A DNA stretch of 64,000 bases, from positions 480,001 to 544,000 of the forward strand of contig CAXXDV010000003.1 in assembly GCA_963674745.2 (NCBI GenBank), read 5' to 3'. Below, one piece after another: positions 5,820 through 21,593 of the stretch. The number at the start of each line of letters is the position of its first letter. Position 1 is the stretch's first letter. This stretch comes from Desulfosudaceae bacterium. Its GTDB lineage: Bacteria > Desulfobacterota > Desulfobacteria > Desulfobacterales > Desulfosudaceae. Made by a program: the position numbers and the translations under genes. The notes beneath the pieces are model-generated. The model did no database searches. It was not told the origin of the DNA and saw only the letters and a program-made list of their open reading frames with translations.

Positions 5820-5844
5820 GATCTCATTGTTTTTGAAATTATCC

Positions 5845-6175
5845 CCGAACCCCGACAAAAGGGCACGGCACGCCGTGCCCCTACAACATTCGCAAACGTC
5901 CCCATAACCACTCCAGACCCCGGACCGCCCTTACCGCCGTCATTCCGGCGAAAGCCGGAATCCAGATCCGCTGAACATCCAGGCACGACTGTACATCTTT
6001 TGCAAAGACAGCCGGCAACCCGTGACCTCGAATCCGGAACCCTGACAACAGGGCACGGCACGCCGTGCCCCTACAACATCCACCACCATCCCCGATCCTC
6101 GAATTCCTAAGCCTCAAACCACTGTTTCTTAAAACCCTAACACCCTGATACTTTAAAACCCCCGCGTAGCGGGCA
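5845..6175. repeat. REP cluster
   Basis: Two GGGCACGGCACGCCGTGCCCCTAC, one CGTCATTCCGGCGAAAGCCGGAATCCAG and a terminal CCCGCGTAGCGGG hairpin. Confidence 0.85.
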
Positions 6176-7189
<1,014 letters not shown>

Positions 7190-7254
7190 TTAACATGGAT
7201 TTTTCTTCTTTGTTTACAAGATAACAATACTGTGTAAAATAAGACAAATAACGT

Positions 7255-7372
7255 TGTCACCCCGGGCTGTCGGCCTTGGGGCCCGCAGCCGGAATGACGG
7301 CGTTGGATGGTGTAGGGGCAGGCCCCTGTGCCTGCCCTGATATTAAGGGCACCCACAGGGGGATGCCCCTAC
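7255..7372. repeat. REP cluster (CGTC-type plus convergent GTAG doublet)
   Basis: GCCGGAATGACG, followed by GTAGGGGCAGGCCCCTGTGCCTGCCC..GGGCACCCACAGGGGGATGCCCCTAC. Confidence 0.8.
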
Positions 7373-7394
7373 TAATCAGGCGGGGCTTACTACC

Positions 7395-7991
7395 ATGAAA
7401 AAAGAAGATCTTGTTGCTTTTGAAGAGCGGATTAAAACCCTTTTTGAAGCCGGTCATATCAGAGCGCCTGTTCATTTGTCAGGTGGCAACGAAGCGGCCC
7501 TGATCGACATTTTCAAAAAGTATCAGCCGGGAGACTGGATTTTTTCCACCTGGCGCAACCATTACCACTGGCTGCTGTCCGGCAGGGATCCGCAGGAACT
7601 GGAAAGGCAGATCCTGGCCGGTGATTCCATGTCGGTTTTTGATGATCGGTTTTTCACCTCGTCCATCGTCGGGGGAAACGCGCCCATCGCGCTGGGTGTC
7701 GCCCTGGCACTCAAGCTGAAGAAAGAGCGGGCTGCGGTTGATCCTCCGGCTTGCATGGTCTGGTGTTTTATCGGCGATATGGCCGCGTCCGGCGGCCTGG
7801 CGCAAGAGTGCGTTCAATATGCAGAAGGTCATAACCTGCCGGTTACATATATTATTGAAGACAACGGATTTTCAGTGACAACCGATACCCGGGAGGTGTG
7901 GGGCACCGGGAAAACAGTCAAAATCCGTCGTTATGAATACGACCGCCAATATCCCCATGCCGGTACAGGAAAATTTGTGGATTTTGATTGA
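7395..7991 (+). CDS. Short TPP-dependent enzyme, pyruvate dehydrogenase E1 alpha-like subunit
   Basis: PVHLSGGNE, STWRNHYH, SIVGG and the TPP-binding motif GDMAA..IIEDN; only 198 aa. Confidence 0.85.
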   Translation: MKKEDLVAFEERIKTLFEAGHIRAPVHLSGGNEAALIDIFKKYQPGDWIFSTWRNHYHWLLSGRDPQELERQILAGDSMSVFDDRFFTSSIVGGNAPIALGVALALKLKKERAAVDPPACMVWCFIGDMAASGGLAQECVQYAEGHNLPVTYIIEDNGFSVTTDTREVWGTGKTVKIRRYEYDRQYPHAGTGKFVDFD

Positions 7992-7997
7992 GAACCC

Positions 7998-8516
7998 ATG
8001 ACTTATAAAGATTACATTACCCGGGAAATGAACACGCTGGCCGAAAACCCGGATGTGTTTTTTCTGGGCCAGCAGGTGGGAGAGGGTGATTTTTACGGCA
8101 CCCTGAAAGATATTCCTACGGACAGGCGTATCGAGATGCCGGTGGCCGAAGAAATGCAGATGGGCATGAGCATCGGCATGTCTCTGGAAGGTTTATTGCC
8201 GGTGTCCATTTTCCAGCGCATGGATTTTCTGCCCCGGGCCATGGACCAGATCGTGAATCATCTGAACGTTATATCGCAAATGTCCAGGGGAAAATTCTCG
8301 CCCAGGGTGATTATCCGTACGACCATCGGCGGCACTGAACCTTTGCACCCGGGGTTGCAGCACGCCAAGGACCTGATTAAAGGCTTTCAGGCCATGGTGG
8401 ATTTTCCGGTCCTGGATCTGAAAACCAAAGAAGATATTGTGGACGGCTACAAACTGGCACGGGAAGAACCCCGTTCCATCATGCTGGTTGAACGGCAGGA
8501 TTTGTATCACTCATAG
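7998..8516 (+). CDS. Short E1 beta/transketolase pyrimidine-binding subunit
   Basis: IEMPVAEE..GMSIG, DFL.RAMDQIVN and GLQH motifs; 172 aa with no C-terminal domain. Confidence 0.85.
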   Translation: MTYKDYITREMNTLAENPDVFFLGQQVGEGDFYGTLKDIPTDRRIEMPVAEEMQMGMSIGMSLEGLLPVSIFQRMDFLPRAMDQIVNHLNVISQMSRGKFSPRVIIRTTIGGTEPLHPGLQHAKDLIKGFQAMVDFPVLDLKTKEDIVDGYKLAREEPRSIMLVERQDLYHS

Positions 8517-8789: not shown

Positions 8790-10274
8790 ATGGCAACCAG
8801 AACCGACCTCATTCTCGTTAATCCCGGCAATCAAAAACAGACTTACGGCAGTCTGGGCAATGACCTGGCCGGAATCGAACCTCCGTTGCTGATCGCGCTT
8901 CTGGCGGCCTATCTGCGTCAATACGGCTTTACCGTTCAAATCATTGATGCCGAAGCAGAAGGGCTTGATGCCGAGCAGACCGCCGACAGGATAGCTGCTT
9001 CTGCACCACTGGTAGTGGGTGTCGGCGCCATGGGGGCCAATCCCTCGGCCTCGTCAACCCCTAAAATGGCCGCCATCCGGCCGTTGTTGAATCATATCAA
9101 AGAAAAAAATCTGTCCTGCAAAACCTTTCTGTTCGGTATCCATCCTTCGGCCCTGCCCGAACAGAGTCTCTGGGAAGAGGCGGTTGATTTTGTCGTGCGT
9201 GGAGAAACCTTTTATCCTGTTGAACAGTTGCTTCATCTGGTCCGGTCAGGTGGTGAACTTTCTAATATTAAAGGACTTTGTTATTTACAGGACGGCAGGT
9301 TCATTAACCATGGCCGGGCGGATCTGGTTAAAAATCTGGATGACCTGCCTTCTGCCGCCTGGGACCTGCTGCCCATGGAAAAATACCGGGCCCATAACTG
9401 GCACTGCCTGGATGACCTTGGCCATCGTTCACCCTATGCCGTTATCCATACCGGCCTGGGGTGCCCGTTTAACTGTCATTACTGCAATATCCACGCATTG
9501 TACGACGGAAAACCGGGTATCCGGCTTAGAAGCCCGCAGCGGGTTGTGGCGGATATCGATCTGCTCTATCAACAATACCATGTCCGCCATATCAAAATCA
9601 TGGACGAGCTTTTTGTCATCAACAAAGACCGCTTGCTGGAAATCTGCGACCTGTTGATCAAACGTGACTACGAACTTAACCTCTGGGCCTATGCCCGGGT
9701 TGACACGGTATTTTTGCCCGTTTTAAACAGGCTGAAGCAGGCCGGCGTCAACTGGCTGGCCCTTGGCATTGAAGCCGGAGATCAGAAGGTACGAGAGGGG
9801 GTGGCCAAGGGGCGGTTTGACCGGCAAACCATCGAACAGGCCGTTTCCATGTGCCACGAAGCCGGGATTCATGTGCTGGGAAATTTCATGTTCGGCCTGC
9901 CCGACGATGATATGGAAACCATGCAGGAGACACTGGCACTGGCTCAGAGCCTGAAATGCGAGTACGTCAACTTTTATACTACCATGGCCTACCCGGGGTC
10001 GGCGCTCTATGAGGATGCTGTAAAACAGGGGTGGGCGCTTCCGCAAAGTTGGGAAGGGTATGCCCAGTTTTCCCCGGAAACCCTGCCGTTGCCCACAAAA
10101 CACCTGACGGCAGCCCAGGTATTGGCCTTCCGGGACAAGGCCTTTGAAACGTATTTCAACGATACCGGTTATCTTGGCAGGATCAAAAAAAAGTTCGGTC
10201 CGGAAGCCGTGACCCACATCAGGCAGATGCTGACGCATAAACTGCGACGGAATATTTTATCCCCGGAATCATAG
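8790..10274 (+). CDS. B12-binding radical SAM protein
   Basis: N-terminal B12-binding-like domain (EPPL..ALLAAYL..IIDAEAE), CPFNCHYC, GIEAG and GNFMFGLP. Confidence 0.92.
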   Translation: MATRTDLILVNPGNQKQTYGSLGNDLAGIEPPLLIALLAAYLRQYGFTVQIIDAEAEGLDAEQTADRIAASAPLVVGVGAMGANPSASSTPKMAAIRPLLNHIKEKNLSCKTFLFGIHPSALPEQSLWEEAVDFVVRGETFYPVEQLLHLVRSGGELSNIKGLCYLQDGRFINHGRADLVKNLDDLPSAAWDLLPMEKYRAHNWHCLDDLGHRSPYAVIHTGLGCPFNCHYCNIHALYDGKPGIRLRSPQRVVADIDLLYQQYHVRHIKIMDELFVINKDRLLEICDLLIKRDYELNLWAYARVDTVFLPVLNRLKQAGVNWLALGIEAGDQKVREGVAKGRFDRQTIEQAVSMCHEAGIHVLGNFMFGLPDDDMETMQETLALAQSLKCEYVNFYTTMAYPGSALYEDAVKQGWALPQSWEGYAQFSPETLPLPTKHLTAAQVLAFRDKAFETYFNDTGYLGRIKKKFGPEAVTHIRQMLTHKLRRNILSPES

Positions 10275-10288: not shown

Positions 10289-10996
10289 TCAGCGCCACAC
10301 AAAAAACTCCCGTATAAACTGAAAATAATAAGCCGCACCCCAGCGCCAGATTTGCAGTTTCCGTTCACCACCGATGCGGGGCGGCTCATCTCCCGGTATT
10401 TCGGTTATTTTAAGTTTGCGCTTGGCCGCCCGTACCGATAGCAGCGGTTCGGTTCCGATGCGTGTAAAAAACAGCTTTTCCGCAAGAATGAAGCCCTCGT
10501 CCTTATCCAGCTCAAGATTATAAAAAACACGGGTTTTGTACGCCCGGTAGATGACCATGCAGTCCGTGTACCGGCCGCCATGCAGAATGTTGACGGTCCT
10601 GGTGAAAAGCCAGTTGCCGAAGCCGGTCAGAAAATCGTCGTCAGCACTTTTGGCATTCCCCAGATATCGGGATGCAATCACCATGTCATACCCTTCTTCC
10701 ATTTTGGCGATCAGGCCGGGAATCAGTTCCGGGATCGAGTTGCCGTCCGGACTGAAAGTGATAACAATATCCCCTGTGACATGAGGAAAAGCCTCGTTGT
10801 AGGCATGCCTCAGTCCCGGACGACTCTGTTTGATCAGAACCCACCCGTTTTCCTGCGTGTATTCGATGGTGCCGTCAGTCGAGCCGCCGTCAACAATGAT
10901 AATCTGATCACACCATTCTTTTTTAATGCGCGGCATGATGGCCTTCATGCCGGTTATTTCATTCAGGGTCGGGATTAAAAGTGTGACAGTCATCAT
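10289..10996 (-). CDS. GT2 glycosyltransferase, polyprenol-phosphate glycosyltransferase (DPM1-like)
   Basis: IPTLNE, VDGGSTDGT, DMVIASRY, YTD..YRAY and EPPRIGGE motifs; 235 aa. Confidence 0.85.
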   Translation of the reverse strand: MMTVTLLIPTLNEITGMKAIMPRIKKEWCDQIIIVDGGSTDGTIEYTQENGWVLIKQSRPGLRHAYNEAFPHVTGDIVITFSPDGNSIPELIPGLIAKMEEGYDMVIASRYLGNAKSADDDFLTGFGNWLFTRTVNILHGGRYTDCMVIYRAYKTRVFYNLELDKDEGFILAEKLFFTRIGTEPLLSVRAAKRKLKITEIPGDEPPRIGGERKLQIWRWGAAYYFQFIREFFVWR

Positions 10997-11017
10997 CGGT
11001 CCAGTTTTCCGGTCTTT

Positions 11018-11817: not shown

Positions 11818-13863
11818 GTGATGATTTTGGACCAAAACAAGATTAGCGAAAGTGTAACTGTTATTATTCCTGCATATAATTCAGCCTTATCACTTCCTTC
11901 CTGTCTGGAATCCGTTTTGAACCAGTCCTGCCCACCTGTGGAAATTGTGGTTGTTGATGACGGCTCTACTGATGAGACGGGTGAACTCCTGTCTAAATAT
12001 CCGGTTAAACAGTTGCGTTTACCGCGCCGGATGGGTGCTGCCTATGCCAGAGTTGCGGGTGCCAGGGCGGCAAAAGGTTCAATCCTTGCTTTTCTGGATG
12101 CAGACTGTATCGCCGGTCCGGACTGGCTCCGTGATTTGGTCGGTGCAATGTCAGCGGATGTGGCCGGAGTCGGCGGCGGGTATCGGTTTGAAAATGGTCA
12201 TAACCTGTTTGAAACATTTATCTCCAGGCTGGCCAGGGACTGGTTTTCCCAAAAACAGCCGGAAGGACGCGCGATTCTTATCGGGGGTAATGCCGCCTTT
12301 CGGAAAGAGGTTTTCCTGGGCAGGCAATATTTCTGGGAACTATCCCATCGGCGGCATTTTGCCAGCGGGGATGATACGCTTTTATGTCTGGAGATTCTGG
12401 AGAAACACAAATTAGACTATTTGCCGGGTTCGCCGGTCACGCATCAATCCTATGGAACAGCAGGCTTCTTCCGACGACAGATAAGGTGGGCTAAGAGTCG
12501 GACATCACTTTTTTTGAAACCGCCGGTTAAACAACGAACGAATCTGGCTTCAGGTCCCATTATCAATCTTTTATCCCAGATATTAAGCATCGGGTTCGTC
12601 GTTTTATCGAGCGTGCTTGCTTTATCTGCCCCTTTTTCAGTTTTAGGGCTTCCTTTATTTGTATTATCAGTATTACTGTTTTTTTTCAGCCATTTGAATC
12701 CGTTGAGTGTGCTTACTGAACAACGACGATTTACGCTGTTTTGGATACCCGCGGCCTTTTTTTTATGGCTCAGAGGTTTATGCTATATCATGGGGATTGC
12801 CGGTGCTTTTTTTGCTGAAATGGTCAATGCTGCTGGTATATTAGTTGACAAGCTGGTATTCGCCCGCGACTTTTTTGATCCAAAAAGGCTTTTCAAAATA
12901 TATGTATTTGTAACCAATCGCTGTAACCAGCGATGTGACTTCTGCTTTTATCGCAATAAGTTAACCAGCCAAAATGATCAAGATACGCTGATGTTGAATG
13001 ACTATCAGAAAATATCAGATAATTTACCAACAATTCCCTATTTGACACTCACCGGTGGAGAACCTTTTCTAAGGAACGATCTGGATCAAATCGCCTTGAG
13101 GTTTTATAAAAAAAATCGAGTCCGTTATTTGGTAATTCCTACCAACGGGACGTTGCCCCGGGCAACCGAAGACATAATTGAAAGACTGTTGATCGATGCA
13201 CCCCATTTGAATCTTACGGTACAGGTTTCCTTGAATGGACTGGAAGACTACTTTTTTAACGGTAAAAATTCGGAAGAGACCGCCGTTGTTTTTGATACGT
13301 GGGATCGTCTGTACCGACTGCAGAAAAGGTTTCGTAATCTGAAAAGGAATCTCTCGCTGGTTATTACCCAGGACAACAGCGACGTGTTGGAACAGCTCGT
13401 GGAAAAAATATCAGTAGACCTGAAACCGGATCATTTTTTTATTACGCCTCAGAGATCGGGACCTGGAGTGGTTTCTCTTCCCCATATCACAACGGAAAGG
13501 TTTGTGAGCGTTCTTCAGAAAATGCAAATGTCCGATAAGCCCACTTTTTTTGATCATATTTATCGCTTTGTATACAAAACGGTAGAGCGTCATTTCGTCA
13601 ATGTTTATCGAACCGGTAAAATGCCTGCGCCCTGCCTGGCGGGGAAAAAGTTTCTGGTTATCGACCCCGAAGGAGAGGTTAAACTTTGTGAATTAAGAGA
13701 TGATAAGATCGAAAATGTTCTTGATCATAAATGGAAGAACATAGCATCGATGGGACAATTCACAACAGTCTTGAACAGCGTCTATCATGAAAATTGCGTC
13801 TGCACCTGGGGGTGCGCCATTGTTTCCAATACGATTCATCGCTTTTCAGTATTGAATTCTTAA
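11818..13863 (+). CDS. Fusion of GT2 glycosyltransferase, membrane segment and radical SAM/SPASM(Twitch)-like domain
   Basis: IIPAYN..VDDGSTD..FLDAD..RRQIRW (GT2); hydrophobic block; CNQRCDFC, TGGEPFLR and C-terminal CLAG..GEVKLC..CVCTWGC. Confidence 0.88.
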   Translation: MMILDQNKISESVTVIIPAYNSALSLPSCLESVLNQSCPPVEIVVVDDGSTDETGELLSKYPVKQLRLPRRMGAAYARVAGARAAKGSILAFLDADCIAGPDWLRDLVGAMSADVAGVGGGYRFENGHNLFETFISRLARDWFSQKQPEGRAILIGGNAAFRKEVFLGRQYFWELSHRRHFASGDDTLLCLEILEKHKLDYLPGSPVTHQSYGTAGFFRRQIRWAKSRTSLFLKPPVKQRTNLASGPIINLLSQILSIGFVVLSSVLALSAPFSVLGLPLFVLSVLLFFFSHLNPLSVLTEQRRFTLFWIPAAFFLWLRGLCYIMGIAGAFFAEMVNAAGILVDKLVFARDFFDPKRLFKIYVFVTNRCNQRCDFCFYRNKLTSQNDQDTLMLNDYQKISDNLPTIPYLTLTGGEPFLRNDLDQIALRFYKKNRVRYLVIPTNGTLPRATEDIIERLLIDAPHLNLTVQVSLNGLEDYFFNGKNSEETAVVFDTWDRLYRLQKRFRNLKRNLSLVITQDNSDVLEQLVEKISVDLKPDHFFITPQRSGPGVVSLPHITTERFVSVLQKMQMSDKPTFFDHIYRFVYKTVERHFVNVYRTGKMPAPCLAGKKFLVIDPEGEVKLCELRDDKIENVLDHKWKNIASMGQFTTVLNSVYHENCVCTWGCAIVSNTIHRFSVLNS

Positions 13864-14022: not shown

Positions 14023-15300
14023 ATGATACTTTACATTCATCCTGACGCCAAAATGATCCTTCCTGATATTATCCCCATGTCTTTGCCAGGGCTCATAAAC
14101 CGTCTGGAGGCGCCTGTTTCGGGACGTTTTTATAATGAATGGACAAAAGCGGAAGTTAAAAAATCGGACATCATTATTATGGACATCCACTGGTATACGA
14201 CGATTAAAAGCGCCATCCGGTTGTCGTTCAAGCTGAAGGCTGTCAATCCTGAAGTCGTCATCATTGCCGGCGGACTGTCGGCTTCAGTGTTTGCCCGGCA
14301 AATATTAAAAGATTCACGAATCGACTATATTATTCGTGGAGACGGAGAAATCCCGCTGAACATGCTTGTCGATAAGTTGTTAAAAAGCGATGATGTCTCC
14401 AACGTCCCTAATCTTGTAACCAGGCAGTTTGAATCCAGTGAAAATTATTTTTTAAACAATAATGATTTTGATGATTCAAATTTCAGGGATATCGGTTTTT
14501 TTCCGAGCCTGCAGGAAAGGATATTCAAGCTTCATAATAGCTGTCATGACTGGTTTTATCCGGTTTATCCGACCCTGCTCGTTATGAGAGGATGCCCTTT
14601 TAAGTGCAATAATTGTTATGGCTCTCCGGATTACCAGAAAACGATTTTCAGTCGAAACTGGCTTTTGAGATCTGCGGAAAAAGTTAAAGATGATCTTGCT
14701 TATTGGAGTGATTCCAGAGATATTCATTTCTTAAATGTCTTTCATGATTTTATTGCCGCATTGCCTGAAGATTATGCTGATGTCGTTCTAGATCGGGGGT
14801 ACGATTTGAACATATCATGGGACTTTGTAGATGTCCCCTCCAGAGAGGGCTTGATGAGATTGATGGACTCTTTCAACGGTGGGTTGATTCAGTTCTCTCT
14901 TGATCGCAAGCATTGTACCTCTATCGAGTTGCACGATCTGGATACCCTTATTGATCGAATACAACAGGTAAAATCAAACCGGAAATATAAATGCCGTTTA
15001 TGTTATGCGCATCGATTTGTCCAGGATCATGAGTCGTATGCAAAAGCATTGCGCAGGGTCGTAAAGTCTACAGGCTGCCTTTTGTATAGAGCAGACTTCT
15101 GGTGGGATGAGGATTTGGCTCCGGATGTTGACGGCACCTGCACTGATGAGCAATACAGAAAATGCATTTCCGGTACCAATAAATTTGTTATGTACAATAC
15201 CATTTTTAAAGCCGGGGTGGCGGTACACAGACGTTTTCCCCGTGTGGCGGAATCAATGGCACATATGCTCAATCGCCGGTTTGTTCAGGCAGTCACCTGA
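14023..15300 (+). CDS. Divergent B12-binding radical SAM protein
   Basis: MDIHW..IIAGG..IIRGDGE B12-domain-like segment and RGCPFKCNNC; the C-terminal barrel is poorly conserved. Confidence 0.75.
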   Translation: MILYIHPDAKMILPDIIPMSLPGLINRLEAPVSGRFYNEWTKAEVKKSDIIIMDIHWYTTIKSAIRLSFKLKAVNPEVVIIAGGLSASVFARQILKDSRIDYIIRGDGEIPLNMLVDKLLKSDDVSNVPNLVTRQFESSENYFLNNNDFDDSNFRDIGFFPSLQERIFKLHNSCHDWFYPVYPTLLVMRGCPFKCNNCYGSPDYQKTIFSRNWLLRSAEKVKDDLAYWSDSRDIHFLNVFHDFIAALPEDYADVVLDRGYDLNISWDFVDVPSREGLMRLMDSFNGGLIQFSLDRKHCTSIELHDLDTLIDRIQQVKSNRKYKCRLCYAHRFVQDHESYAKALRRVVKSTGCLLYRADFWWDEDLAPDVDGTCTDEQYRKCISGTNKFVMYNTIFKAGVAVHRRFPRVAESMAHMLNRRFVQAVT

Positions 15301-15410
15301 CAGGTATCATTTTATCCTGTCGATTTATTGTGGCTGGCCGGTCATTTCAGAAAAAAGATTGCCTTGATGTATTTATAAACCATCAACTTTTTTAGTCGCA
15401 AACCGGTAAA

Positions 15411-16829
15411 ATGCCCGATAAAGAAAAACCACGCAAACGGATTTTACTGGTTTACGTCAGCAGGTATTCCTCTGGTAAGCTATCAATGCCTGTTTATCAA
15501 TTATCTTCCTATCCGCAACTCGGACTGCTGTATCTTGCCTCGGTTTTACGAAACGAAGGGTTTCAGCCCGAATATCTTGACCCTGTTTCGACGCCCCTGA
15601 ATCGGAGTGCCTTTTTAAAAGCCATTTCGCGCGATGATGTTCTGTTCGTTGGTTTTTACAGCAATTTTGCATTAAAAGAGGCCGTCTGCAGGTTTATTGG
15701 CATTGTTAAAGACATAAAAAATATTCCTGTGCTGGTGGGCGGCCCGGGATTCTATGATGCGGGATCATACTTTAATGCTGGTGCAGATGCGGTCGTAGCC
15801 GGTGAGGCGGATGACATTATCGGTTCAATCGCCAGGAGAATAGAGGCGGGCCGTTCCCTGAGGGGCATAGCCGGTGTTACGCTTCCGGAAATATTTCCGT
15901 TAACCTTGTCCGCACCGGTTTTTCCGAATTCAGATATAAATGACTTGCCCCGGCCGGACTGGCGCCAGTCGGATCCGCGAAATTGTTTCTGCCCGACCAT
16001 GGTTTTTGGCCGGCATCCTTTTGCAACTGTTATGGCTTCCCGCGGTTGCCCGATGGCCTGCGCTTTCTGCTGGATGGCCAACAGAAAATGGAAGACGCCC
16101 TGGCGGATTCGTTCAGCAGAAGATGTCGTAATGGAAATCGTTGAGTTGCATCGACGTTTTGGTGTCAGGCATATCAGTTTCCAGGATGATTGTTTCGGTG
16201 CAAGGCTGTCCTGGGTCGATGACCTTTGTGAAAGGTTACTTCAATCTTCACTGGATATCACGTGGGATTGTTATGGGCACCCGCTTGTTTTCTCGAAAAT
16301 GAATAATAATTTTTTGAAAAAAATCCGAAAATCAGGTTGCCGGAGTGTTCATTTCGGCCTGCAATCAGCTTCACCTTCCGTCCTGAAAAAAATTAATCGA
16401 AGCCCGGACGAAGCGGATATTTTAATACGGCTTTTCCCGCTGATGAAAAAATTGGGATATTACCTGATACTTGATTTTATATATGGGCTTCCGGGTGATA
16501 CCCGGCAGAGCCTGGCTGCAAATTTTAATTATGCTCTAAAAGCGGGGCCCCACAGAATTTCGATAGCCCCGCTTCTGGTTTTTCCGGGGACAGGCCTTTA
16601 TGAAGTGTATAAAGAAAACCCGCCTTCCTCGGTTTCCAATGAAGAGATACGCAATGCGATTGTTCAAGGCATGAAAAGATATCATTTAAGACCCGGAATT
16701 GTTTTCGAGAATGTGCGTTTTGCATTGAAATACAATCCGGATTTTATCATTAGACTCTTGGCCTCGGCGCCGGGTTGGTTCGGATATTTTGCCAGGCTCA
16801 ACGAGTTTTACAAGTCTATAGATGAGTGA
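15411..16829 (+). CDS. B12-binding radical SAM protein
   Basis: PQLGLLYLAS, VLVGGPG, GEAD, SRGCPMACAFC and FIYGLPG motifs. Confidence 0.92.
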   Translation: MPDKEKPRKRILLVYVSRYSSGKLSMPVYQLSSYPQLGLLYLASVLRNEGFQPEYLDPVSTPLNRSAFLKAISRDDVLFVGFYSNFALKEAVCRFIGIVKDIKNIPVLVGGPGFYDAGSYFNAGADAVVAGEADDIIGSIARRIEAGRSLRGIAGVTLPEIFPLTLSAPVFPNSDINDLPRPDWRQSDPRNCFCPTMVFGRHPFATVMASRGCPMACAFCWMANRKWKTPWRIRSAEDVVMEIVELHRRFGVRHISFQDDCFGARLSWVDDLCERLLQSSLDITWDCYGHPLVFSKMNNNFLKKIRKSGCRSVHFGLQSASPSVLKKINRSPDEADILIRLFPLMKKLGYYLILDFIYGLPGDTRQSLAANFNYALKAGPHRISIAPLLVFPGTGLYEVYKENPPSSVSNEEIRNAIVQGMKRYHLRPGIVFENVRFALKYNPDFIIRLLASAPGWFGYFARLNEFYKSIDE

Positions 16830-16862
16830 TCGAAAAACAGCAGTTACCCGGGGTGAGGAAGA

Positions 16863-18293
16863 CTATTTGTTATATAAAAAAGGGTAACCAAGGATTTTAA
16901 AAGCCGTTATTGTGGTCTGGCGTAATTGAGAACCGGATTTTATCTTTTTTAACCGATTGATGATATAGCCGGGCCGAAAATAAAATCGTAAATATAATGT
17001 GGACAATTTTCGGAGCATAAGTTTTTCCGAGTCGGTGTTCGGGTTTAAGATGAATGGACAGTCGTCGGCATACCTGCTCTTTGTTACCGGTTGTGTTTCA
17101 TCATGCAGTTGGGCTCCCGGCATCACGCATGTGAGCTGGAATTGCGGGTAATCAATTTTTAATTGTTTTGCATATTTCAGTAACCTCAGATGGGCATCCG
17201 GTTTCTCGCCGGGAAGTGAAAGCATTAAACCGCCTGAAATTTCCATGCCGGCTTTTTTGGCCCATGAGGCCGCTTTGCGGGCCTGGGTCACGGTGATTCC
17301 CTTGCCGATTGCGTCCAGAACCTCCTGGTCATCGGTTTCAAAGCCAAAGGATATTTGATGGCATCCGGCCCTGGCCATCAGTTCAAGCAGATCTTTATCA
17401 ACACAATCGACCCTTGTAGAGGCCCGCCAGGTAATATCCCAGGACCGGTTAATTATTTCACGGCAGATATTTTCGACTAAATCCTGATTGCCCGAGAAAC
17501 ACTGGTCACGAAAATTGATACCGGGTATCTTGAAGCGGTTAACAACTTCATCGATTTCTGCCAGGATGTTGTCGGCACTTCGACATCGGTAAGCCCCCAG
17601 GGCATAAGTGTTCCCGTTACAAAACCGGCATTTACTGTGAGGGCATCCGCGACTGATCAGCATGGAAGTGACAGGGTTCCGGGGAGCAAAAGGTAGCGTG
17701 TAGCACTCATTACAAATCAGGTCCCGTGCAGGGAAGGGGATTCCATCAAGATCTTCAATCAGTGTGCGTTTGCCACGCTTTATGTCCCCTTTATGATCGA
17801 GATAGCTGCAATTGTCTTCCGGATTTCCGTCCATTAATCCGCGCAGCCCCCCTTCAATTTCACCCAGTATCACCAGGTCAATCGCACTGCCGGGATAAAG
17901 AACGAGATCTGGGGAAAGGGTCACATTCGGTCCTGACAGGCAGGCCTTTACATCAGTCACATGTTCTTTGACCTGTTTAATGAATTCAATATCGGTATCA
18001 AGGCTTTTCCAGCCCGTCGGGCATACGAGCCAGTCTGGATGAAATGACTTGATATTTCTGATGATCTTTTCTCGTGAAAAAGATTTCAGGTTGCCGTCTA
18101 TGAGTCGGACATCATGTCCCCGTCCGCGGACATATGATGCGCCATACATTGCATCCAGGGGTTGGAATAACAGGTGCCCCGGAACTTCTGTCCCGGTCCA
18201 GTCTCTCAAGTAATGGACCCTGACTTTACGCCTGAAGGGGGAGTCCGGCCGGATAATTCTATAGCTGTCTGGTATTATGAATAAAAATTTCAA
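16863..18293 (-). CDS. B12-binding radical SAM protein (CX4CX2C variant)
   Basis: SRGCPHSKCRFC, FRDQCF, GFET and LSLPGE motifs; TTG start. Confidence 0.88.
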   Translation of the reverse strand: MKFLFIIPDSYRIIRPDSPFRRKVRVHYLRDWTGTEVPGHLLFQPLDAMYGASYVRGRGHDVRLIDGNLKSFSREKIIRNIKSFHPDWLVCPTGWKSLDTDIEFIKQVKEHVTDVKACLSGPNVTLSPDLVLYPGSAIDLVILGEIEGGLRGLMDGNPEDNCSYLDHKGDIKRGKRTLIEDLDGIPFPARDLICNECYTLPFAPRNPVTSMLISRGCPHSKCRFCNGNTYALGAYRCRSADNILAEIDEVVNRFKIPGINFRDQCFSGNQDLVENICREIINRSWDITWRASTRVDCVDKDLLELMARAGCHQISFGFETDDQEVLDAIGKGITVTQARKAASWAKKAGMEISGGLMLSLPGEKPDAHLRLLKYAKQLKIDYPQFQLTCVMPGAQLHDETQPVTKSRYADDCPFILNPNTDSEKLMLRKLSTLYLRFYFRPGYIINRLKKIKSGSQLRQTTITAFKILGYPFLYNK

Positions 18294-18397
18294 TATTTTG
18301 TCGCTTTTATCGCCGTGGATAAGTCGTGTATATGTTCGTGTTTTTAATTAACATAACAAATAAAGGCCTGTATGTGATATATATCCTATTTTTAAGG

Positions 18398-19819
18398 TTA
18401 TCTTCTTAGATTCGTGGCCAATTCTGACAAAAGAAAGCGCATCCCGCGCAAGATTTCTTTCATCGGCAATGAACGCTGCCGTATCTGTTGGATTACAAAA
18501 CTCGGCCGGGCGTAAAACCATATCATCCCCAACGTCTGCAAATGCGAAAGTGTTTTTTCAGAAAGTGCGCCGGGAATGGTTGTCAGGGGCGGGGCGCCCT
18601 TAACGGGATGATACCAACTGCTGTAGGTTTCCGGGTGAAAATCTCGCAATAGTTGCTTTTTATACTGGTTAAAAAGTTGTGAACCCGGAAAAGGGATGGC
18701 AATGTTAAACTTGACCATGTCGCATTTTATTTTCCGGGCGAACTTAAATGTTTTAATGATTTCTGGTATCCCTTCGCCAGGCAAACCGATCATGAACAGA
18801 CCAAGGGTACGAATGCCTGCTTTACGGGTAATCGCCATAGCCCGTATCCCGTCTTCTAGGGTCGTCCGTTTCCCCAGGCTTTCCAGGATTTCTGGATCAC
18901 CCACCTCAAACCCAAATTGAATATGATGGCAGCCCGCTTCTTTCATGGTCCGCAAAATCTCTTCATCAACCATATTGACTTTAATTTCGCAACCCCATTT
19001 TATTTTTGGCCAATGCCTGGAGCTGCGAAATGCTTTGCAGAAATCCATTCCATATTGTTTGCTGGGAGGAAAGTTGGCATCTGCAAATATAAAACAGTTA
19101 ATCGCATAACGGTCTGCCAGCAGGTCAATTTCTTTCATGACGCTTGGAATGGATCGTATCACCACTTTTGAGTAAAAGCACTCCTGACCGCAGAAAATAC
19201 ACCGCTCCGGGCAGCCTCTGGAAGCCTGGATGCCAAGTGCTCTGCCATAAAATTGAATAAGCGGGAAAGAAGCGTATTGGTTTAGATCCAAAATGTGCCA
19301 GGCTGGATAAGGAAGGGCATCTAAATCCCGGTTTTGGGGGCGCTCTTTCGTTTTTATTATGTTACCCGCAGGGTCCCGAAAAGCCAGACCGGCAATATCA
19401 TTTAAAGGCAATTTGTTTGCCAGAGCATCCATCAGCTGCTCAACTGTCTCCTCCCCCTCACCCAAAACCACGATGTCTGCCAGTCCATCCGTTAGAATAG
19501 ATTCATAAAAAATGGAGGGATGAACACCGCCAAGCACTATGGTTCCGGAAAAGCCTTTCAGTTTCAACAAGTTGCATATTTCAGCAACGTTGGGCATGGT
19601 AGGCGTAAGAGCCCCGATCCCCACCACATCAGGATTGAAGCATAGAATATTTTCCACAAGACGTTGATTTGATCGTCTGGTGGCAAATTGATCTTCCGCT
19701 TTTACAATGTGTCCGGCCGCTTCCATTACGGCCCCGATATAGGCCAGGCCCTGTGGTGGAATCGGCATAAGCAGAGGGTGCCGTTGCGGATAATCAGGAT
19801 TAATAAGAAAACATTTCAT
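18398..19819 (-). CDS. B12-binding radical SAM protein
   Basis: PPQGLAYI, GGVHPS, GEGEET, SRGCPERCIFC and FMIGLPGE motifs; start could be 19849. Confidence 0.92.
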   Translation of the reverse strand: MKCFLINPDYPQRHPLLMPIPPQGLAYIGAVMEAAGHIVKAEDQFATRRSNQRLVENILCFNPDVVGIGALTPTMPNVAEICNLLKLKGFSGTIVLGGVHPSIFYESILTDGLADIVVLGEGEETVEQLMDALANKLPLNDIAGLAFRDPAGNIIKTKERPQNRDLDALPYPAWHILDLNQYASFPLIQFYGRALGIQASRGCPERCIFCGQECFYSKVVIRSIPSVMKEIDLLADRYAINCFIFADANFPPSKQYGMDFCKAFRSSRHWPKIKWGCEIKVNMVDEEILRTMKEAGCHHIQFGFEVGDPEILESLGKRTTLEDGIRAMAITRKAGIRTLGLFMIGLPGEGIPEIIKTFKFARKIKCDMVKFNIAIPFPGSQLFNQYKKQLLRDFHPETYSSWYHPVKGAPPLTTIPGALSEKTLSHLQTLGMIWFYARPSFVIQQIRQRSLPMKEILRGMRFLLSELATNLRR

Positions 19820-19832
19820 TGTTTTTGAAAGA

Positions 19833-21284
19833 CTAATGTTTTTTACCATTGATTAAATAGTTTTTTATGGTAATGCCACCACCCAACAGCATATTTCCGG
19901 GTGACACATTACCTTTAATAAAATGACGTAATATCAGTTTTGGCCGGATGTAAAAACGGAAAAAAGCTTTTTTTTGCCAGTGCTCAAGCTGTCGTGAAGA
20001 CATCCCGTCGGGCGTATAAACAAGATCATGTGCTTCAGCATTTTTTTGATAGTTTGCAGAAAAATTTTCCCAGGCAGGGATTGTCTTGTTTCTGAATACG
20101 TCTTGAAAAAACTGTGAGCCTGGATAAGGTACGGCTATGTTAAACTTGGCAAAATCCAGCCCGGAACGTTTCGCGTAATCAATCGTTTTTATAATGCTTT
20201 GTTCTGTCTCTCCGGGCAATCCCAGCATGAACAGGCCCAGGCTCAGGACCTTCTCGGTCTTGGCAGCTGATACCGCCTTTTTACCGTCAGCCAGCTTTAA
20301 TCCCGGTTTCATTCGGGTGAGCAAATCCTGATCACCACTTTCCAGTCCGAAAATCAACATGTAAAGGCCTGCCTTTTTCATCATCCGAATAAGCGGACGG
20401 TCTATCAGATCGGCCCTTGTTTCTGTTATCCATCTTATCTTATTGTGAAGGCCCTTTTTGGTTATCTCTCGGCAAAAAGTTTCTGCATCTTGGGTGGTTA
20501 AAGGGAAGATGGCATCGGCAAACCAGAACATATTTATACCTGTTTTATTGTAAATAGATGCAACCTCGTCAGCCACCAGGGCAGGGTTCCGCTTTCGAAT
20601 TTTTGGGCTCATTACGTTCTGAGCGCAAAAATAACATCGAAAAGGGCATCCCCTTGAGGCCAGAAGGGGGAGCAGCCGTTTGTTAAAGGAGAACATGGGC
20701 GGGGTTTTGTATTGATCTATGTCTACCAGGTGCCATGCCGGCAGCGGCAGGTCATCCAGATTGCGCACAAGATCCCGATCGGAATTTTCTATTATTTGAT
20801 CCTGATCAAGATATGAAATTCCCCGGATGTTTGCAAGATCCCCCTGGCCGGCCAGGCAGTCAGCAAGCTCGCCAACAGTTTCCTCGGCCTCGCCACGGAC
20901 GATGATATCTCCGAGTCCGTTTTTTAACAGCTGCTTTGCGAACAATGTGGGGTGAATATTGCCAAGGACAATTTTGGTGTAAGGGCTGTTATTTCGAATT
21001 AGTCTGGAAAGATGGGGTAGAATACCCATTACAGGCGTCAGGCAGGATATGCCCACAACGGCCGGATTCTTGAGGCGAAGGATGTCAACAAAAGGCACTC
21101 GGTTTTTGACAAAATCATCATAAATCGATACGTCAAACCCCTTTTTTCCCAACACAGCGGCAAGATAGGCCAGGCCCATGGGAGCAAATGGCACCATCAG
21201 CGGATCATAATCACCCAGAACATTATATTTTGGCCGGGGGTTGAGGAATAACCAGTCCAGAGGCTTATTATTTATACTTGTCAT
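19833..21284 (-). CDS. B12-binding radical SAM protein, paralog of the 18398-19819 gene
   Basis: APMGLAYLAA, GNIHPT, SRGCPFRCYFC, GLESG and FMLGLPGE; shares FADA.FP and KFNIA.P.PGS with its neighbour. Confidence 0.92.
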   Translation of the reverse strand: MTSINNKPLDWLFLNPRPKYNVLGDYDPLMVPFAPMGLAYLAAVLGKKGFDVSIYDDFVKNRVPFVDILRLKNPAVVGISCLTPVMGILPHLSRLIRNNSPYTKIVLGNIHPTLFAKQLLKNGLGDIIVRGEAEETVGELADCLAGQGDLANIRGISYLDQDQIIENSDRDLVRNLDDLPLPAWHLVDIDQYKTPPMFSFNKRLLPLLASRGCPFRCYFCAQNVMSPKIRKRNPALVADEVASIYNKTGINMFWFADAIFPLTTQDAETFCREITKKGLHNKIRWITETRADLIDRPLIRMMKKAGLYMLIFGLESGDQDLLTRMKPGLKLADGKKAVSAAKTEKVLSLGLFMLGLPGETEQSIIKTIDYAKRSGLDFAKFNIAVPYPGSQFFQDVFRNKTIPAWENFSANYQKNAEAHDLVYTPDGMSSRQLEHWQKKAFFRFYIRPKLILRHFIKGNVSPGNMLLGGGITIKNYLINGKKH

Positions 21285-21593
21285 CAGGAAATATTTATCG
21301 CAAAACCGGAAATGTAAATTCCAGCCTGAATAAGTTGAACATTGTCTCCGCAAGCTATAGAATCATTTATTTCAGGAATCGTTCTAAATAATTAAAAAAT
21401 AACTGATATTTATGTTGAATCCATCGCTTTTGTGATGCATTATAAAAAACTTATATTGGTAGAAAAAACGGAATTAAAGTTTCACATTAACAAATTTTGA
21501 CCATATGCCATAAAAGCTGGTTTCGTCAATGGTTTAAAAATAAAGGCGATAGAGTTGAATGGTGCGGCCGGAACAGCAGAAAGGCACTGAAGA

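Follow-up and report, generated by a model that had tools for sequence, protein, structure and literature searches.

Our analysis of a 64,000-nucleotide stretch of a Desulfosudaceae genome (the window) identified one uninterrupted gene for a GT2 glycosyltransferase joined, through a membrane region, to a radical SAM enzyme with a Twitch-like tail (Table 1). The gene is real and intact, and not an artefact. We are confident that the fused pair represents a genuine, conserved bifunctional unit, and we give an even chance to a model in which it works as a bifunctional, cytoplasm-facing enzyme of the inner membrane that performs glycosyl transfer and radical tailoring as coupled steps on one and the same membrane-bound glycoconjugate. 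We found no published description of the architecture, a GT2 with helices followed by a Twitch radical SAM domain, and the radical SAM family concerned is large and unnamed.

Table 1. Coordinates, in the window, of the fused gene, its parts and the genes around it. G002 is the genome of a sister species.
Feature	Position	Strand	Details
Whole fused GT2-radical SAM gene	11818..13863	+	681 codons from GTG 11818; 680 from ATG 11821
GT2 (GT-A) catalytic domain	11845..12507	+	residues ~10-230; DxD D94/D96; acidic pair D185-D186; PF00535
Basic amphipathic stretch after GT-A, putative interface helix	12460..12552	+	residues ~215-245; 8 K/R, 0 D/E
Membrane region, two hydrophobic blocks	12553..12852	+	residues ~246-298 and ~305-345; positively charged loop between
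Radical SAM core	12895..13587	+	residues ~360-590; CX3CX2C at nt 12922-12945; GGE; PF04055
Twitch-like auxiliary-cluster domain	13615..13827	+	C606-x12-G619-x4-C624-E625 ... C660-x-C662-x3-C666
Nucleotide-sugar genes: HddA-like kinase, HddC/ManC-like nucleotidyltransferase, epimerase/dehydratase, split PDH-E1-like TPP enzyme	4117..8516		59-84% identical orthologs in G002
B12-binding radical SAM gene upstream	8790..10274	+	Pfam; 71% identical ortholog in G002
Small GT2, 235 aa, polyprenyl-phosphate sugar synthase-like	10289..10996	-	NCBIfam, solved matches
Six B12-binding radical SAM genes directly downstream	14023..23198		14023-15300, 15411-16829, 16863-18293, 18398-19849, 19833-21353, 21594-23198; Pfam, NCBIfam
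Three tandem YfhO-like (GT-C) membrane proteins	23251..30908	+	Pfam YfhO 19.0, 28.5, 29.2 bits vs 28.5
B12-radical SAM	31096-32505	-	ortholog in G002
PMT_2-like GT-C	32502-34313	-	ortholog in G002
DegT-type sugar aminotransferase	34566-35768	-	ortholog in G002

The fused gene and its domains

The frame translates without a stop, bearing out the single unbroken 681-aa ORF that a preliminary description of this DNA had reported, and the database copy of the protein (P0002), at 680 aa, is of nearly the same length. Two public read runs (X1 and X2), both made from a single sample that is possibly the origin of this DNA, were re-assembled, and the Logan contig of each covers positions 11700-14000 unbroken, with 0 other letters and 0 indels; neither contains the stop or frameshift at the junction for which the preliminary description had allowed. 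Runs of 8 and 9 T residues lie in the membrane-coding part, at about 12682-12689 and 12757-12765. The genome of a sister species (G002) carries a 64% identical fused ortholog as a 686-aa open frame inside a syntenic island, and two proteins from other assemblies (P0003, 73% identical, and P0004, 64%) are colinear with the window protein across the junction. No Rfam family reached its gathering score in the window, so no riboswitch precedes the fused gene, and a scan for promoters and terminators returned nothing beyond consensus-level matches.

The domain order given earlier, a GT2 followed by about three to four transmembrane helices, CX3CX2C and a Cys-rich tail (CLAG..C..CVCTWGC), agrees with Pfam, hydropathy and motifs. 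The N-terminal half is, by its sequence, an inverting GT-A glycosyltransferase domain with its catalytic motifs kept. Pfam Glycos_transf_2 (PF00535) matches residues 14-166 with 127.7 bits against a cut-off of 23.3, and Glyco_tranf_2_3 extends over residues 13-225. R78, D94 and D96 are invariant across 22 GT2 halves (alignment A3), the two aspartates also in alignment A6; by our own reading of A3, all 22 keep an acidic residue at the first position of the E/D-D pair (185-186 here), and D186 is invariant within the fused clade (A6). The role of the acidic general base in GT2 enzymes is set out in PMC12595478.

A profile of the 22 GT2 halves aligns through positions 5-269 of 334 with residues 42-317 of 355 of 6yv7 (E 1.3e-32), one of the structures 6YV7-9 of the GDP-mannose-binding GT2 enzyme PcManGT (6YV9), and through positions 5-320 with residues 140-472 of BcsA (E 5e-12); chondroitin synthase, like these two, is matched over most of the length of the GT2 half. 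The PcManGT and BcsA alignments take in the GT-A domain and the helices after it, which places the half, at sequence level, with the cellulose-synthase-like membrane GT2 enzymes. It is not of the polyprenyl-phosphate synthase type: DPMS, ArnC and sll0501 are matched only within profile positions 4-163, and the NCBIfam ArnC model gives 36 bits against a cut-off of 529. With the likeness to such synthases limited to the first 130-160 positions, a lipid carrier as acceptor is a guess. The fold of PcManGT was reportedly called a minimal cellulose-synthase-like fold in its original paper. The fused GT2 differs from the cellulose-synthase type in that extra channel-forming helices are not evident and that QxxRW, the acceptor motif of cellulose-synthase-like enzymes, is not conserved in alignments A1, A3 and A6, RQIRW being confined to the window protein (at 220-224) or its clade and other members having R....SR.

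In the membrane region, the second hydrophobic block contains a conserved polar residue (R317 here), an aromatic residue and an invariant glycine, G326 (alignments A1 and A6). Basic stretches flank the blocks both in the window protein and in the average of the 22 GT2 halves, 17 out of 21 split GT2 proteins end in a tail with more lysine and arginine than acidic residues, and a linker of only about 17 residues separates the last helix from the radical SAM core. The blocks and their basic flanks fit about four helices in two hairpins with both soluble domains in the cytoplasm, in line with the topology that the preliminary description had expected. From hydropathy and charge only, we infer that these helices tie the two cytoplasm-facing domains to each other at the surface of the membrane.

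The radical SAM core is matched by Pfam Radical_SAM (PF04055) over residues 364-481, with 46.5 bits against a cut-off of 29.5, and Fer4_12 scores 23.4 bits against 22. Its motifs, C369-x3-C373-x2-C376 and G413-G414-E415, are invariant at all six named residues in 103 sequences. In the tail, C606, C624, C660 and C662 are invariant and the fifth cysteine is not. Full SPASM membership, taken as a score above the cut-off together with the seven-cysteine motif of two auxiliary clusters (CX9-15GX4C ... CX2CX5CX3C ... C), does not apply to this tail, in which SPASM (PF13186) reaches 13.9 bits against 21.5 (E 0.066, residues 606-662) and C-x12-G-x4-C plus C-x-C-x3-C supply five cysteines. The same model is matched at E<=0.01 by 32 of 48 family members, so the homology of the tail to the SPASM domain is clear. 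A profile of the last 110 residues finds the Twitch domain of BtrN as its best solved match, at a marginal E of 0.0015 (21.5 bits), with CteB second. The SPASM/Twitch-like character first noted for the tail is thus upheld as homology; the hairpin motif, cysteines enough for one cluster and the likeness to a solved Twitch domain suggest a Twitch-like tail with one putative auxiliary cluster.

Over its whole length, the radical SAM profile is nearer to SkfB (the best match, with an alignment that reaches into the Twitch hairpin), MoaA (5e-16), CteB (positions 13-336 of 360), Tes, anSME and viperin (1e-10) than to BtrN, which aligns through positions 257-325 only (E 0.001); cytosylglucuronate decarboxylase is matched at 3.5e-7. 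BtrN-type dehydrogenase membership does not extend over the whole length, and the resemblance marks a possible working mode rather than a family. Several of these nearest matches bind nucleotides or peptides. The preliminary description had interpreted the protein, with BtrN in mind, as transferring a sugar and then oxidising or epimerising it on a lipid carrier. The parts of this interpretation that stand are a real and recurrent fusion and the catalytic motifs kept in both domains; its simplest version is opposed by a GT2 half that is not of the polyprenyl-phosphate synthase type and by a core nearest to SkfB, MoaA and viperin.

None of the NCBIfam families considered (MftF, TIGR04283, MoaA, NirJ/AhbD, HpnH, PTO1314 and N_Twi_rSAM) scores above its curated cut-off. 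The fused protein gives 94.6 bits against 280 for MftF, 63.8 against 182 for the arsenosugar glycosyltransferase TIGR04283, 54.5 against 284 for MoaA and about 31.7-34.8 against 306 for PTO1314 (TIGR03961); N_Twi_rSAM reaches at most 67 bits, against 170, in relatives. HpnJ (TIGR03471) is absent from the protein's best 25 of 85 and best 25 of 34 families. PTO1314 as a possible Cds family was dropped, since other radical SAM genes of the genome outscore the fused protein, and we found no paper naming TIGR03961. Arsenosugar and mycofactocin systems were set aside as well, with scores far under the cut-offs and partner genes absent among the annotated window ORFs. Two Atlas searches returned clusters that were all unnamed or generic radical SAM/SPASM and GT2, and in the main texts of openly available papers we came across neither a GT2-radical SAM fusion nor a role for radical SAM enzymes in lipid-linked glycosylation systems.

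Recurrence of the pair and the surrounding island

How widespread is the pairing? Fused relatives fall into at least 22 clusters at 50% identity, and together with the ortholog in G002 they dispose of the one-off artefact that the preliminary description had named as a risk. PF00535 and PF04055 are both present in 15 of the 120 best word-index matches. Of the radical SAM half's 150 best representatives, 23 (the window protein included) are 618-744 aa long with the match in their C-terminal half, and an N-terminal GT2 is present in 20 of the 21 long representatives tested. Nine single-ORF fusions occur among 80 metagenome loci, and the ESM Atlas holds clusters of 57-261 members with the GT2 plus radical SAM architecture. 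The radical SAM family itself comprises 119 representative clusters at E<=1e-30.

The two halves also occur as separate genes. At 40 of 81 loci (80 genome loci and the window), the radical SAM gene has a GT2-with-helices ORF no more than 6 kb away, and 34 of these 40 ORFs score at least 100 bits by our own count. Separate neighbours are found in both gene orders. A dozen phyla or more have the separate-gene pair, and marine single-cell genomes of Pelagibacteraceae are among its carriers; the window's own genome has a split copy as well, whose halves are separated by a B12-radical SAM gene. Where the pair is split, the radical SAM partner is soluble, about 360 aa long and free of helices. The halves are in different frames at three loci (L001, L002 and L067), and a fourth (L049), with TGA TAA between them, is not a fusion. 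On the radical SAM tree the fused or split state changes at least 10 times, 7 of these changes being forced by starred branches, and the window protein falls within a starred clade of 19 rows, all of them fused. Distances within the two halves are correlated (Mantel r 0.64, 56 pairs, a value reached by 0 of 2000 permutations). These patterns suggest that the GT2-plus-helices and radical SAM pair is an old functional unit whose halves co-diverge. No GT2 accompanies a large Chloroflexota clade (38 rows) of the radical SAM family, whose neighbours are B12-radical SAM genes and small ORFs. A phage origin, raised by a contig labelled as viral (L081), was discarded; the contig carries a split pair surrounded by a heptosyltransferase gene and four further genes for radical SAM proteins, and resembles a bacterial glycan island.

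Within the island, the small GT2 resembles polyprenyl-phosphate sugar synthases, with 92.8 bits for AglJ (cut-off 325), 55 bits for a Dol-P-hexose transferase, and ArnC, DPMS or sll0501 as all seven of its solved matches. The first of the downstream B12-radical SAM genes encodes the motif CPFKCNNC, and several neighbouring B12-radical SAM proteins have HpnJ (TIGR03471) as their best NCBIfam match, at up to 177.7 bits against a cut-off of 577.6. The YfhO-like region contains internal repeats D1-D4 and is conserved in G002. A sequence search found no solved relative for the PMT_2-like protein; with it the island has four GT-C-like proteins, whose Pfam scores are at or close to the cut-offs. Between its genes, the island contains REP-like repeats only, with no plausible small ORF and no GtrA-like or small multi-helix ORF as a candidate flippase, and no hopanoid or tetraether genes occur among the annotated window ORFs.

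Of the genes in the island, those for B12-radical SAM proteins alone turn up repeatedly beside the pair: 16 of 48 module loci have them, as do 6 of 9 metagenome fusions; the other 32 module loci, many of them short contigs, have no such neighbour. The window's genome contains 57 B12-radical SAM ORFs, which makes chance adjacency likelier here. A YfhO-like gene was found by BLAST at 1 of the 48 module loci and GT-C-like genes by Pfam at 3 of 15 annotated loci; the link of the pair to GT-C genes is local to this island.

A possible coupling of glycosyl transfer and radical chemistry

The acceptor, the order of steps and the chemistry of the fused enzyme are what we infer as follows. With a nucleotide sugar as donor, the GT2 half would glycosylate an acceptor in or on the membrane; this may be a membrane lipid, or else a sugar or glycan that is linked to a lipid. 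The radical SAM half, tethered to it, would cleave SAM and abstract a hydrogen atom from the transferred sugar, with the electron passing to an auxiliary cluster fully ligated by cysteines. The net result would be a BtrN-like two-electron oxidation to a keto sugar, an assignment of the radical step that we make tentatively and would not call probable. Such a keto sugar could open the way to epimerisation or amination, or be tailored further by the B12-type radical SAM enzymes encoded nearby, and in this genome the product would go on to the island's four GT-C transferases.

BtrN (2-deoxy-scyllo-inosamine dehydrogenase, PDB 4M7T), whose substrate is a sugar-like polyol, shares with the fused protein a CX3CX2C motif followed by a single auxiliary cluster domain at the C-terminus; this domain has, in both, the C-x(9-15)-G-x4-C hairpin and an acidic residue after the second cysteine (C-E in the fused protein, C-F-E in BtrN). 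As described in PMC9012708, the auxiliary cluster of BtrN has four cysteine ligands and accompanies a two-electron oxidation, and that of MoaA has three cysteines and an open iron site; the fused family has four invariant cysteines at its putative auxiliary site, the number of ligands in BtrN. Only the last ~70 residues of the two proteins align, weakly (E 0.0015), and BtrN, unlike the fused protein, is a small soluble enzyme of antibiotic biosynthesis without a glycosyltransferase partner.

Soluble antibiotic pathways provide known cases in which radical SAM enzymes tailor sugars, and for lipid head groups such tailoring is known through genetics only (Cds, HpnJ); to our knowledge, radical chemistry on a membrane-bound glycoconjugate has in vitro proof for no enzyme. 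Cds, HpnJ and PtmC are radical SAM enzymes that act on a sugar once it is attached to its carrier, according to two accounts (PMC13459092; PMC9092360). The logic is the same as the one that we propose: in these accounts, HpnI/HpnK/HpnJ (hopanoid cyclitol ether), a glycosyltransferase with Cds (calditol) and the PtmC pathway (pactamycin) have the sugar attached first and rearranged by a radical SAM enzyme next. In the calditol pathway the glycosyltransferase partner of Cds is an unknown protein. HpnJ and PtmC belong to the B12-binding class, genes for which share the locus with the fused gene. Unlike the two halves of the fusion, all of these enzymes are separate proteins, and we found no membership of the fused protein by sequence, HpnJ being absent from its best-25 lists of NCBIfam families.

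A second set of precedents comes from polyprenyl-phosphate sugars, whose tailoring by oxidation and reduction before GT-C transfer is described for DprE1/E2 and ORF13, and is established before export for DprE1/E2, in PMC11127046. That tailoring is the work of flavin or SDR enzymes, whereas here it would fall to a radical SAM enzyme. With three-component glycosylation systems (GtrB/CsbB-type GT2, flippase and GT-C) the island has in common a synthase-like small GT2 and the four GT-C-like proteins; it differs from them in that its gaps contain no flippase and the fused GT2 is not of the synthase type.

Could the radical step come first? The radical SAM half might act on the nucleotide sugar, by dehydration, decarboxylation, epimerisation or C-C chemistry as in viperin, BlsE and MoaA, and hand a labile donor to the GT2 half. 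We consider this unlikely, even though the core is most similar to the nucleotide- or nucleoside-sugar binders MoaA, viperin and cytosylglucuronate decarboxylase, the split partners are soluble and helix-free, and a fusion would fit the channelling of an unstable donor. The four invariant cysteines of the auxiliary site contrast with the open iron site of MoaA, the short linker would hold the radical SAM active site at the membrane, and the island already encodes soluble nucleotide-sugar tailoring enzymes.

It is less probable still that the sugar goes to a membrane lipid and its pyranose ring is then turned into a carbocyclic cyclitol head group, by the radical SAM half or by the B12-type neighbours that resemble HpnJ. 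Cds, HpnJ and PtmC, in the accounts cited above, are three precedents for glycosyl transfer followed by radical SAM contraction of a carrier-bound sugar, as proposed there; the HpnJ matches of the neighbours point the same way, and the membrane-embedded fold type of the fused GT2 also suits lipid glycosyltransferases (Glyco_transf_21, 23.4 bits). Against such a contraction, the TIGR03961 lead scores low on the fused protein, HpnJ-type enzymes are of the B12-binding class and not of the Twitch type, and hopanoid and tetraether genes are missing from the annotated window ORFs.

A peptide or protein substrate, which the Twitch/SPASM half would mature (by thioether or C-C bond formation or epimerisation) and the GT2 half glycosylate in the manner of glycocins and sactipeptides, seems very improbable to us. 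Most characterised SPASM/Twitch enzymes do act on peptides, SkfB is the best whole-domain solved match with CteB aligned over nearly the full profile, SunS-type GT2 enzymes are among the weak matches, and the setting of the Chloroflexota clade gives a RiPP-like picture. Yet no RRE or precursor-peptide gene was seen next to the fused gene, the gaps offer no plausible small ORF, the partner GT2 is membrane-embedded, and the island consists of nucleotide-sugar, GT2 and GT-C genes. An assembly error that joined two genes, or a fusion with one half dead, can be dismissed with near certainty: the T-runs are prone to indel errors and three loci have their halves in different frames, but the two re-assemblies are identical base for base, P0003 and P0004 come from other assemblies, and the starred clade is fused throughout, with catalytic motifs conserved in both halves.

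The coupling of glycosyl transfer to radical tailoring, if true, would tell what a large radical SAM family, so far unnamed, does and aid the reading of the radical-SAM-rich glycan islands that recur in uncultured anaerobes; with the glycosyltransferase and the radical enzyme on one polypeptide, the protein is a compact, expressible test case. It is conceivable, and for now doubtful, that the pairing of a GT2 with helices and a Twitch enzyme marks a widespread, unrecognised 'glyco-radical' class of membrane enzymes, acting on a lipid-anchored sugar at the cytoplasmic face in a composite cavity of two active sites, with B12-type radical SAM enzymes as downstream partners. Such a class would give anaerobes a way, independent of oxygen and flavin, to make keto, epimeric, C-branched or carbocyclic sugars for the glycans or lipids of the envelope.

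A different combination of the same two chemistries exists in B12-radical-SAM/GT2 fusions, which join a B12-type domain to a DPM-synthase-like GT2 across many uncultured phyla, often beside GT-C genes. The window fusion differs from these in having a small Twitch-type domain, placed C-terminal to the helices of a cellulose-synthase-like GT2. At one locus (L075) the two kinds meet, a GT2-Twitch radical SAM fusion lying beside a B12-radical-SAM/GT2 fusion.

Frame, domains and topology of the fused protein

The fused gene encodes 681 residues from a GTG and is stop-free throughout; an ATG lies one codon further on, and P0002, its public database copy, has 680 aa. The CX3CX2C motif and Cys-rich tail of the preliminary description can be read in the sequence as C369-x3-C373-x2-C376 and C606-LAG...C624...C660-V-C662-TWG-C666, and the membrane segment that it placed between the two domains appears as hydrophobic stretches at residues ~246-298 and 305-345. 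The junction shows neither a stop nor a frameshift in Logan contigs from two public runs: in both cases a single contig spans 11700-14000 unbroken with no differing letters and no indels; as the two runs come from one sample, possibly the source of the window DNA, this is a re-assembly check, not independent biology. Relatives provide the independent evidence: two database proteins, P0003 (73% identical, 682 aa) and P0004 (64% identical, 681 aa), the latter carrying no NCBI name beyond 'MAG: glycosyltransferase [Thermodesulfobacteriota bacterium]', align colinearly across the junction, and the ortholog in the sister genome of the same genus (G002) is an open frame of 686 aa; the T-runs in the membrane part therefore hide no frameshift.

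Among solved proteins, the best match to a profile of 22 GT2 halves was chondroitin synthase (E 7e-55), over its GT-A domain only. The longest coverage was obtained with 6yv7 (profile 5-269 of 334 to residues 42-317 of 355, E 1.3e-32) and BcsA (5-320 to 140-472, E 5e-12); 6YV9 is PcManGT, a GT2 binding GDP-mannose. DPMS, ArnC and the GtrB-like sll0501 were matched over the first 130-160 positions only, and an identity as a polyprenyl-phosphate sugar synthase was rejected on these grounds; the profiles instead argue for a membrane-embedded, cellulose-synthase-like GT2. R78, D94 and D96 are invariant in 22 GT2 halves, and the alignment keeps the acidic position that is the general base of inverting GT-A enzymes. 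No NCBIfam family reached its cut-off in these halves, the sub-threshold matches (MftF in 22/22, EpsD in 22, TIGR04283 and PgaC in 21 each) all falling far below.

Averaged over the family, hydropathy and charge describe a basic amphipathic stretch (~205-250) ahead of two hydrophobic blocks, the first of 50 and the second of 40 residues, joined by a positively charged loop, and K/R exceed D/E in the C-terminal tails of 17 of 21 split GT2 proteins. By the positive-inside rule this gives two predicted membrane hairpins with both termini inside, and a radical SAM domain that would lie in the cytoplasm ~17 residues past the last helix, in agreement with the expectation that both domains are cytoplasmic; sequence profiles and hydropathy are the basis of the fold assignments and of the topology alike. 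A polar residue (R317 in the window protein) is conserved in the second block, which also contains an aromatic residue and an invariant glycine; this suggests that the block is more than an anchor.

In 103 radical SAM sequences, C369, C373, C376 and G413-G414-E415 are invariant, as are C606, C624, C660 and C662; C666 is frequent yet not invariant. The domain profile found SkfB as its nearest solved match (3.6e-17), followed by MoaA (5.4e-16), CteB (3e-13, aligned over 13-336), tetraether synthase (8.4e-13), anSME (2.3e-11), viperin (1e-10) and cytosylglucuronate decarboxylase (3.5e-7). No NCBIfam family was reached at cut-off by the domain or by seven stand-alone relatives, and the window protein belongs to none of the curated families tested. 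The proposed SPASM/Twitch-like tail is supported: the window protein itself stays below the SPASM cut-off, but 32 of 48 family members match Pfam SPASM at E<=0.01, and a profile of the last 110 residues (19 members) has the Twitch domain of BtrN as its top match (E 0.0015), with CteB next (0.041). In the BtrN alignment the two hairpin cysteines line up, as does the acidic residue after the second. According to PMC9012708, a Twitch domain binds one auxiliary cluster, which in BtrN, an enzyme that performs a two-electron oxidation, is held by four Cys and in MoaA by three, leaving an open iron site for GTP. The four invariant cysteines seem closer to the BtrN pattern than to that of MoaA. The protein belongs to GT2 and to the radical SAM superfamily and has a Twitch-type tail.

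Positions of features in the window (nucleotides) and in the fused protein (residues)
Feature	Position	Strand	Remarks
Fused gene	11818-13863	+	
Glycos_transf_2	residues 14-166		Pfam, 127.7 bits (cut-off 23.3)
Glyco_tranf_2_3	residues 13-225		Pfam
Radical_SAM	residues 364-481		Pfam, 46.5 bits (cut-off 29.5)
Fer4_12			Pfam, marginally over cut-off
SPASM	residues 606-662		Pfam, 13.9 bits, below cut-off 21.5; E 0.066
Island	about 4.1 to 35.8 kb		
HddA-like kinase; HddC/ManC-like nucleotidyltransferase; epimerase/dehydratase			in island
Split PDH-E1-like thiamine enzyme			in island
B12-radical SAM gene			island, ahead of fused gene
Small GT2	10289-10996		island, ahead of fused gene
Transketolase N-terminal subunit fragment	11018-11389	-	123 aa, between small GT2 and fused gene
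Six B12-radical SAM genes			directly after fused gene
B12-binding-domain protein	14023-15300	+	425 aa
Three tandem YfhO-like paralogs	23251-30908	+	GT-C candidates
B12-radical SAM gene; DegT aminotransferase			island, after YfhO-like genes
PMT_2-like GT-C protein	32502-34313	-	island, after YfhO-like genes
REP-like repeats	680-916, 5843-6093, 7314-7372, 8540-8684, 34370-34566, 36799-36995, 37946-37986		
Tpt1/KptA RNA 2'-phosphotransferase homolog	39879-40652	-	outside island
Bacterial serpin	43570-44934	-	outside island; Pfam Serpin, E 2e-103

Recurrence, splitting and descent of the pair

The fusion is not a one-off: the architecture recurs across sequence databases. A word-index search found PF00535 and PF04055 together in 15 of the 120 proteins listed, the window's own included. 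Searching 1.84 billion representatives by phmmer with the radical SAM half (residues 340-681) returned 5862 matches at E<=0.001, of which 1607 pass 1e-10 and 119 pass 1e-30. Of the top 150, 23 (the window's own protein among them) have lengths of 618-744 aa and match in their C-terminal half, three measure 487-520 aa and the remainder are stand-alone proteins of ~305-420 aa. An N-terminal GT2 was found in 20 of the 21 long matches scanned; the long match P0242 has Radical_SAM alone at E<=1e-5 and no N-terminal GT2. ESM Atlas clusters combining GT2 and Radical_SAM hold 77, 83, 57, 61 and 261 members, and a metagenome scan gave nine single-ORF fusions in 80 loci, of which L109 and L110 look near-duplicate. 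The architecture is recorded repeatedly, each time without a name.

A genome scan at one genome per species returned a further 80 loci, in which stop-to-stop ORFs were searched with HMMs at 30 bits (thresholds set by us). With the window included, 40 of 81 loci have a GT2-with-helices ORF no more than 6 kb from the radical SAM gene, 34 of them at >=100 bits, and the only same-ORF fusions are L009 (5' end cut), L035, L075 and the window. The halves in L049 lie in one frame with nothing but TGA TAA and six bases between them (11030-11041); in L001, L002 and L067 they lie in different frames, both open over the junction, owing to a frameshift or to gene overlap. Both gene orders are represented among the split pairs, with GT2 first (e.g., L003, L010, L011, L012, L017, L036 and L038) or the radical SAM gene first (L004, L005, L014, L018, L023, L028, L031 and L041). 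By record title, carriers include Acidobacteriota, Planctomycetia, Omnitrophota, Elusimicrobiota, Myxococcota, Alpha- and other Pseudomonadota, Pelagibacteraceae single-cell genomes, Clostridia, Bdellovibrionota, Schekmanbacteria, Coatesbacteria and Nanoarchaeota.

The window's own genome (5.55 Mb) has a second, split copy at C1:2573601-2577130 (locus L089, 6623-10134), in the order GT2 (330 aa), B12-radical SAM (494 aa) and radical SAM/SPASM (346 aa). The last is colinear with the fused half at 27% identity; the GT2 is of the same general kind, its resemblance to the fused GT2 half being confined to the DxD region. The three genes are followed by one for a GT1 and one for a methyltransferase.

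For 109 radical SAM domains, a maximum-likelihood tree was built in a quick search that flagged several long branches; it combined 79 of the 81 loci (two fell below a 250-residue filter) with 30 database proteins hand-picked as fused, so that its fused share is not a frequency. At least ten changes between fused and not-fused states are required, seven of them forced by starred branches. The window protein groups with P0003 and P0004 in a starred clade in which 19/19 rows are fused. A separate starred clade holds 38 Chloroflexota rows without a GT2 nearby, and may have a different substrate. Its members (L013, L019-L026, L032-L034, L040 and others) have two or three B12-radical SAM genes and a PIN-like gene as neighbours. 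Across 56 pairs, distances between GT2 halves and between radical SAM halves are correlated (Mantel r 0.64, reached by 0/2000 permutations), a value to which shared organismal descent contributes and which drops to 0.37 without near pairs. This correlation, taken with the mixed-phylum tree, fits a pair inherited and transferred as a unit.

A possible coupling of glycosyl transfer and radical chemistry

What could be the purpose of such a union? Repeated fusion and splitting with both active sites kept argues that the two proteins act on the same molecule in the same place, and the short tether and helices point to a working site on the membrane's cytoplasmic face. We propose that both halves would work on one molecule at this face, with the radical SAM half acting on a sugar already attached to a lipid or carrier. 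According to PMC13459092 and PMC9092360, Cds, HpnJ and PtmC are radical SAM precedents for such tailoring after attachment, all resting on genetics; PMC11127046 describes oxidation/reduction of polyprenyl-phosphate sugars by DprE1/E2 and ORF13 before export and GT-C transfer. Weighing the recurrence, the tether and these precedents, we consider it about an even bet that both halves act on one membrane-bound glycoconjugate. The putative four-Cys cluster, closed as in the Twitch enzyme BtrN, suggests a two-electron oxidation as the radical step, which we put forward tentatively, as less likely than not.

The main alternative, in which the nucleotide-sugar donor is the substrate of the radical SAM half, agrees with that half's MoaA/viperin-like core and strikes us as unlikely. 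Ring contraction is a more doubtful proposal still, and a peptide substrate for the radical SAM half seems very improbable. An artefactual fusion can practically be dismissed, given the unbroken junction and the recurrence of the architecture. Both enzyme classes and the logic of attaching, then tailoring by radical chemistry, were already known; the membrane-tethered Twitch/GT2 unit is undescribed in the literature searched, where we found no paper on its architecture (subscription journals and supplements lay outside the search).

Genomic surroundings

Neighbour counts are lower bounds, as many loci are short contigs. Among 48 pair-carrying loci, BLAST found the island's B12-radical SAM genes in 16, the small GT2 in six and a YfhO-like gene in one. 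In 15 loci annotated by Pfam, a B12-radical SAM gene directly adjoins the pair in five (L001, L014, L017, L049 and L075) and GT-C-like genes occur in L004, L014 and L049; for six of the nine metagenome fusions, the nearest B12-radical SAM gene is at most 6 kb away. What is conserved is therefore the pair itself, frequently accompanied by a B12-type radical SAM enzyme, and the GT-C link belongs to the window island and some others.

The small GT2 is of the polyprenyl-phosphate sugar synthase kind: all seven solved matches are ArnC, DPMS or sll0501, and its best NCBIfam matches, AglJ and a Dol-P-hexose transferase, lie below cut-off. An HMM trained on the B12-radical SAM proteins encoded in the window matches 57 ORFs of its genome at E<=1e-10, an unusually high count; nine of these ORFs are within C3:479237-512544, and more clusters were found at C1:395-405 kb, C1:2358-2368 kb and C3:2209-2233 kb. 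The island core (10.3-32.5 kb) has a G+C of 0.436 versus 0.505 for the genome, a value as low being found in 3.9% of 22-kb windows. The island is syntenic in the sister genome, with ortholog identities of 54-84% gene by gene, and the two islands differ in which B12-radical SAM genes immediately follow the fused one.

Several smaller observations concern the island and other loci. The 425-aa B12-binding-domain protein, encoded by the first of the six genes that follow the fused one, is not called as Radical_SAM by Pfam, yet contains CPFKCNNC and is therefore a divergent B12-radical SAM enzyme. At the place of the transketolase fragment the sister genome has intact ORFs of 308 and 316 aa; in the window's genome, therefore, genes immediately upstream of the fused one have been lost or have decayed. 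The YfhO-like paralogs contain internal repeats 62-79% identical at the DNA level and, with the PMT_2-like protein, make four GT-C candidates, all kept in the sister genome at 54-61% identity. The REP-like repeats, G+C-rich intergenic palindromes in direct and inverted copies that end in GCCCCTAC, border island sub-blocks, with none in the low-GC core. In L075 (Elusimicrobiales, 9518-15317), the gene after the fused one encodes a 727-aa B12-radical-SAM/GT2 fusion, which places two different GT2-radical SAM fusions side by side, and another radical SAM gene comes next. The split pairs of L018 and L028 (Pelagibacteraceae single-cell genomes) come after an ABC-transporter ATPase, a Pfam-less 263-aa ORF and a methyltransferase; dxs and a polyprenyl synthase gene are close by. 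L081, filed as viral in IMG/VR and with no phage gene seen among its annotated genes, has a split pair with four more radical SAM/SPASM genes and a GT9 heptosyltransferase.
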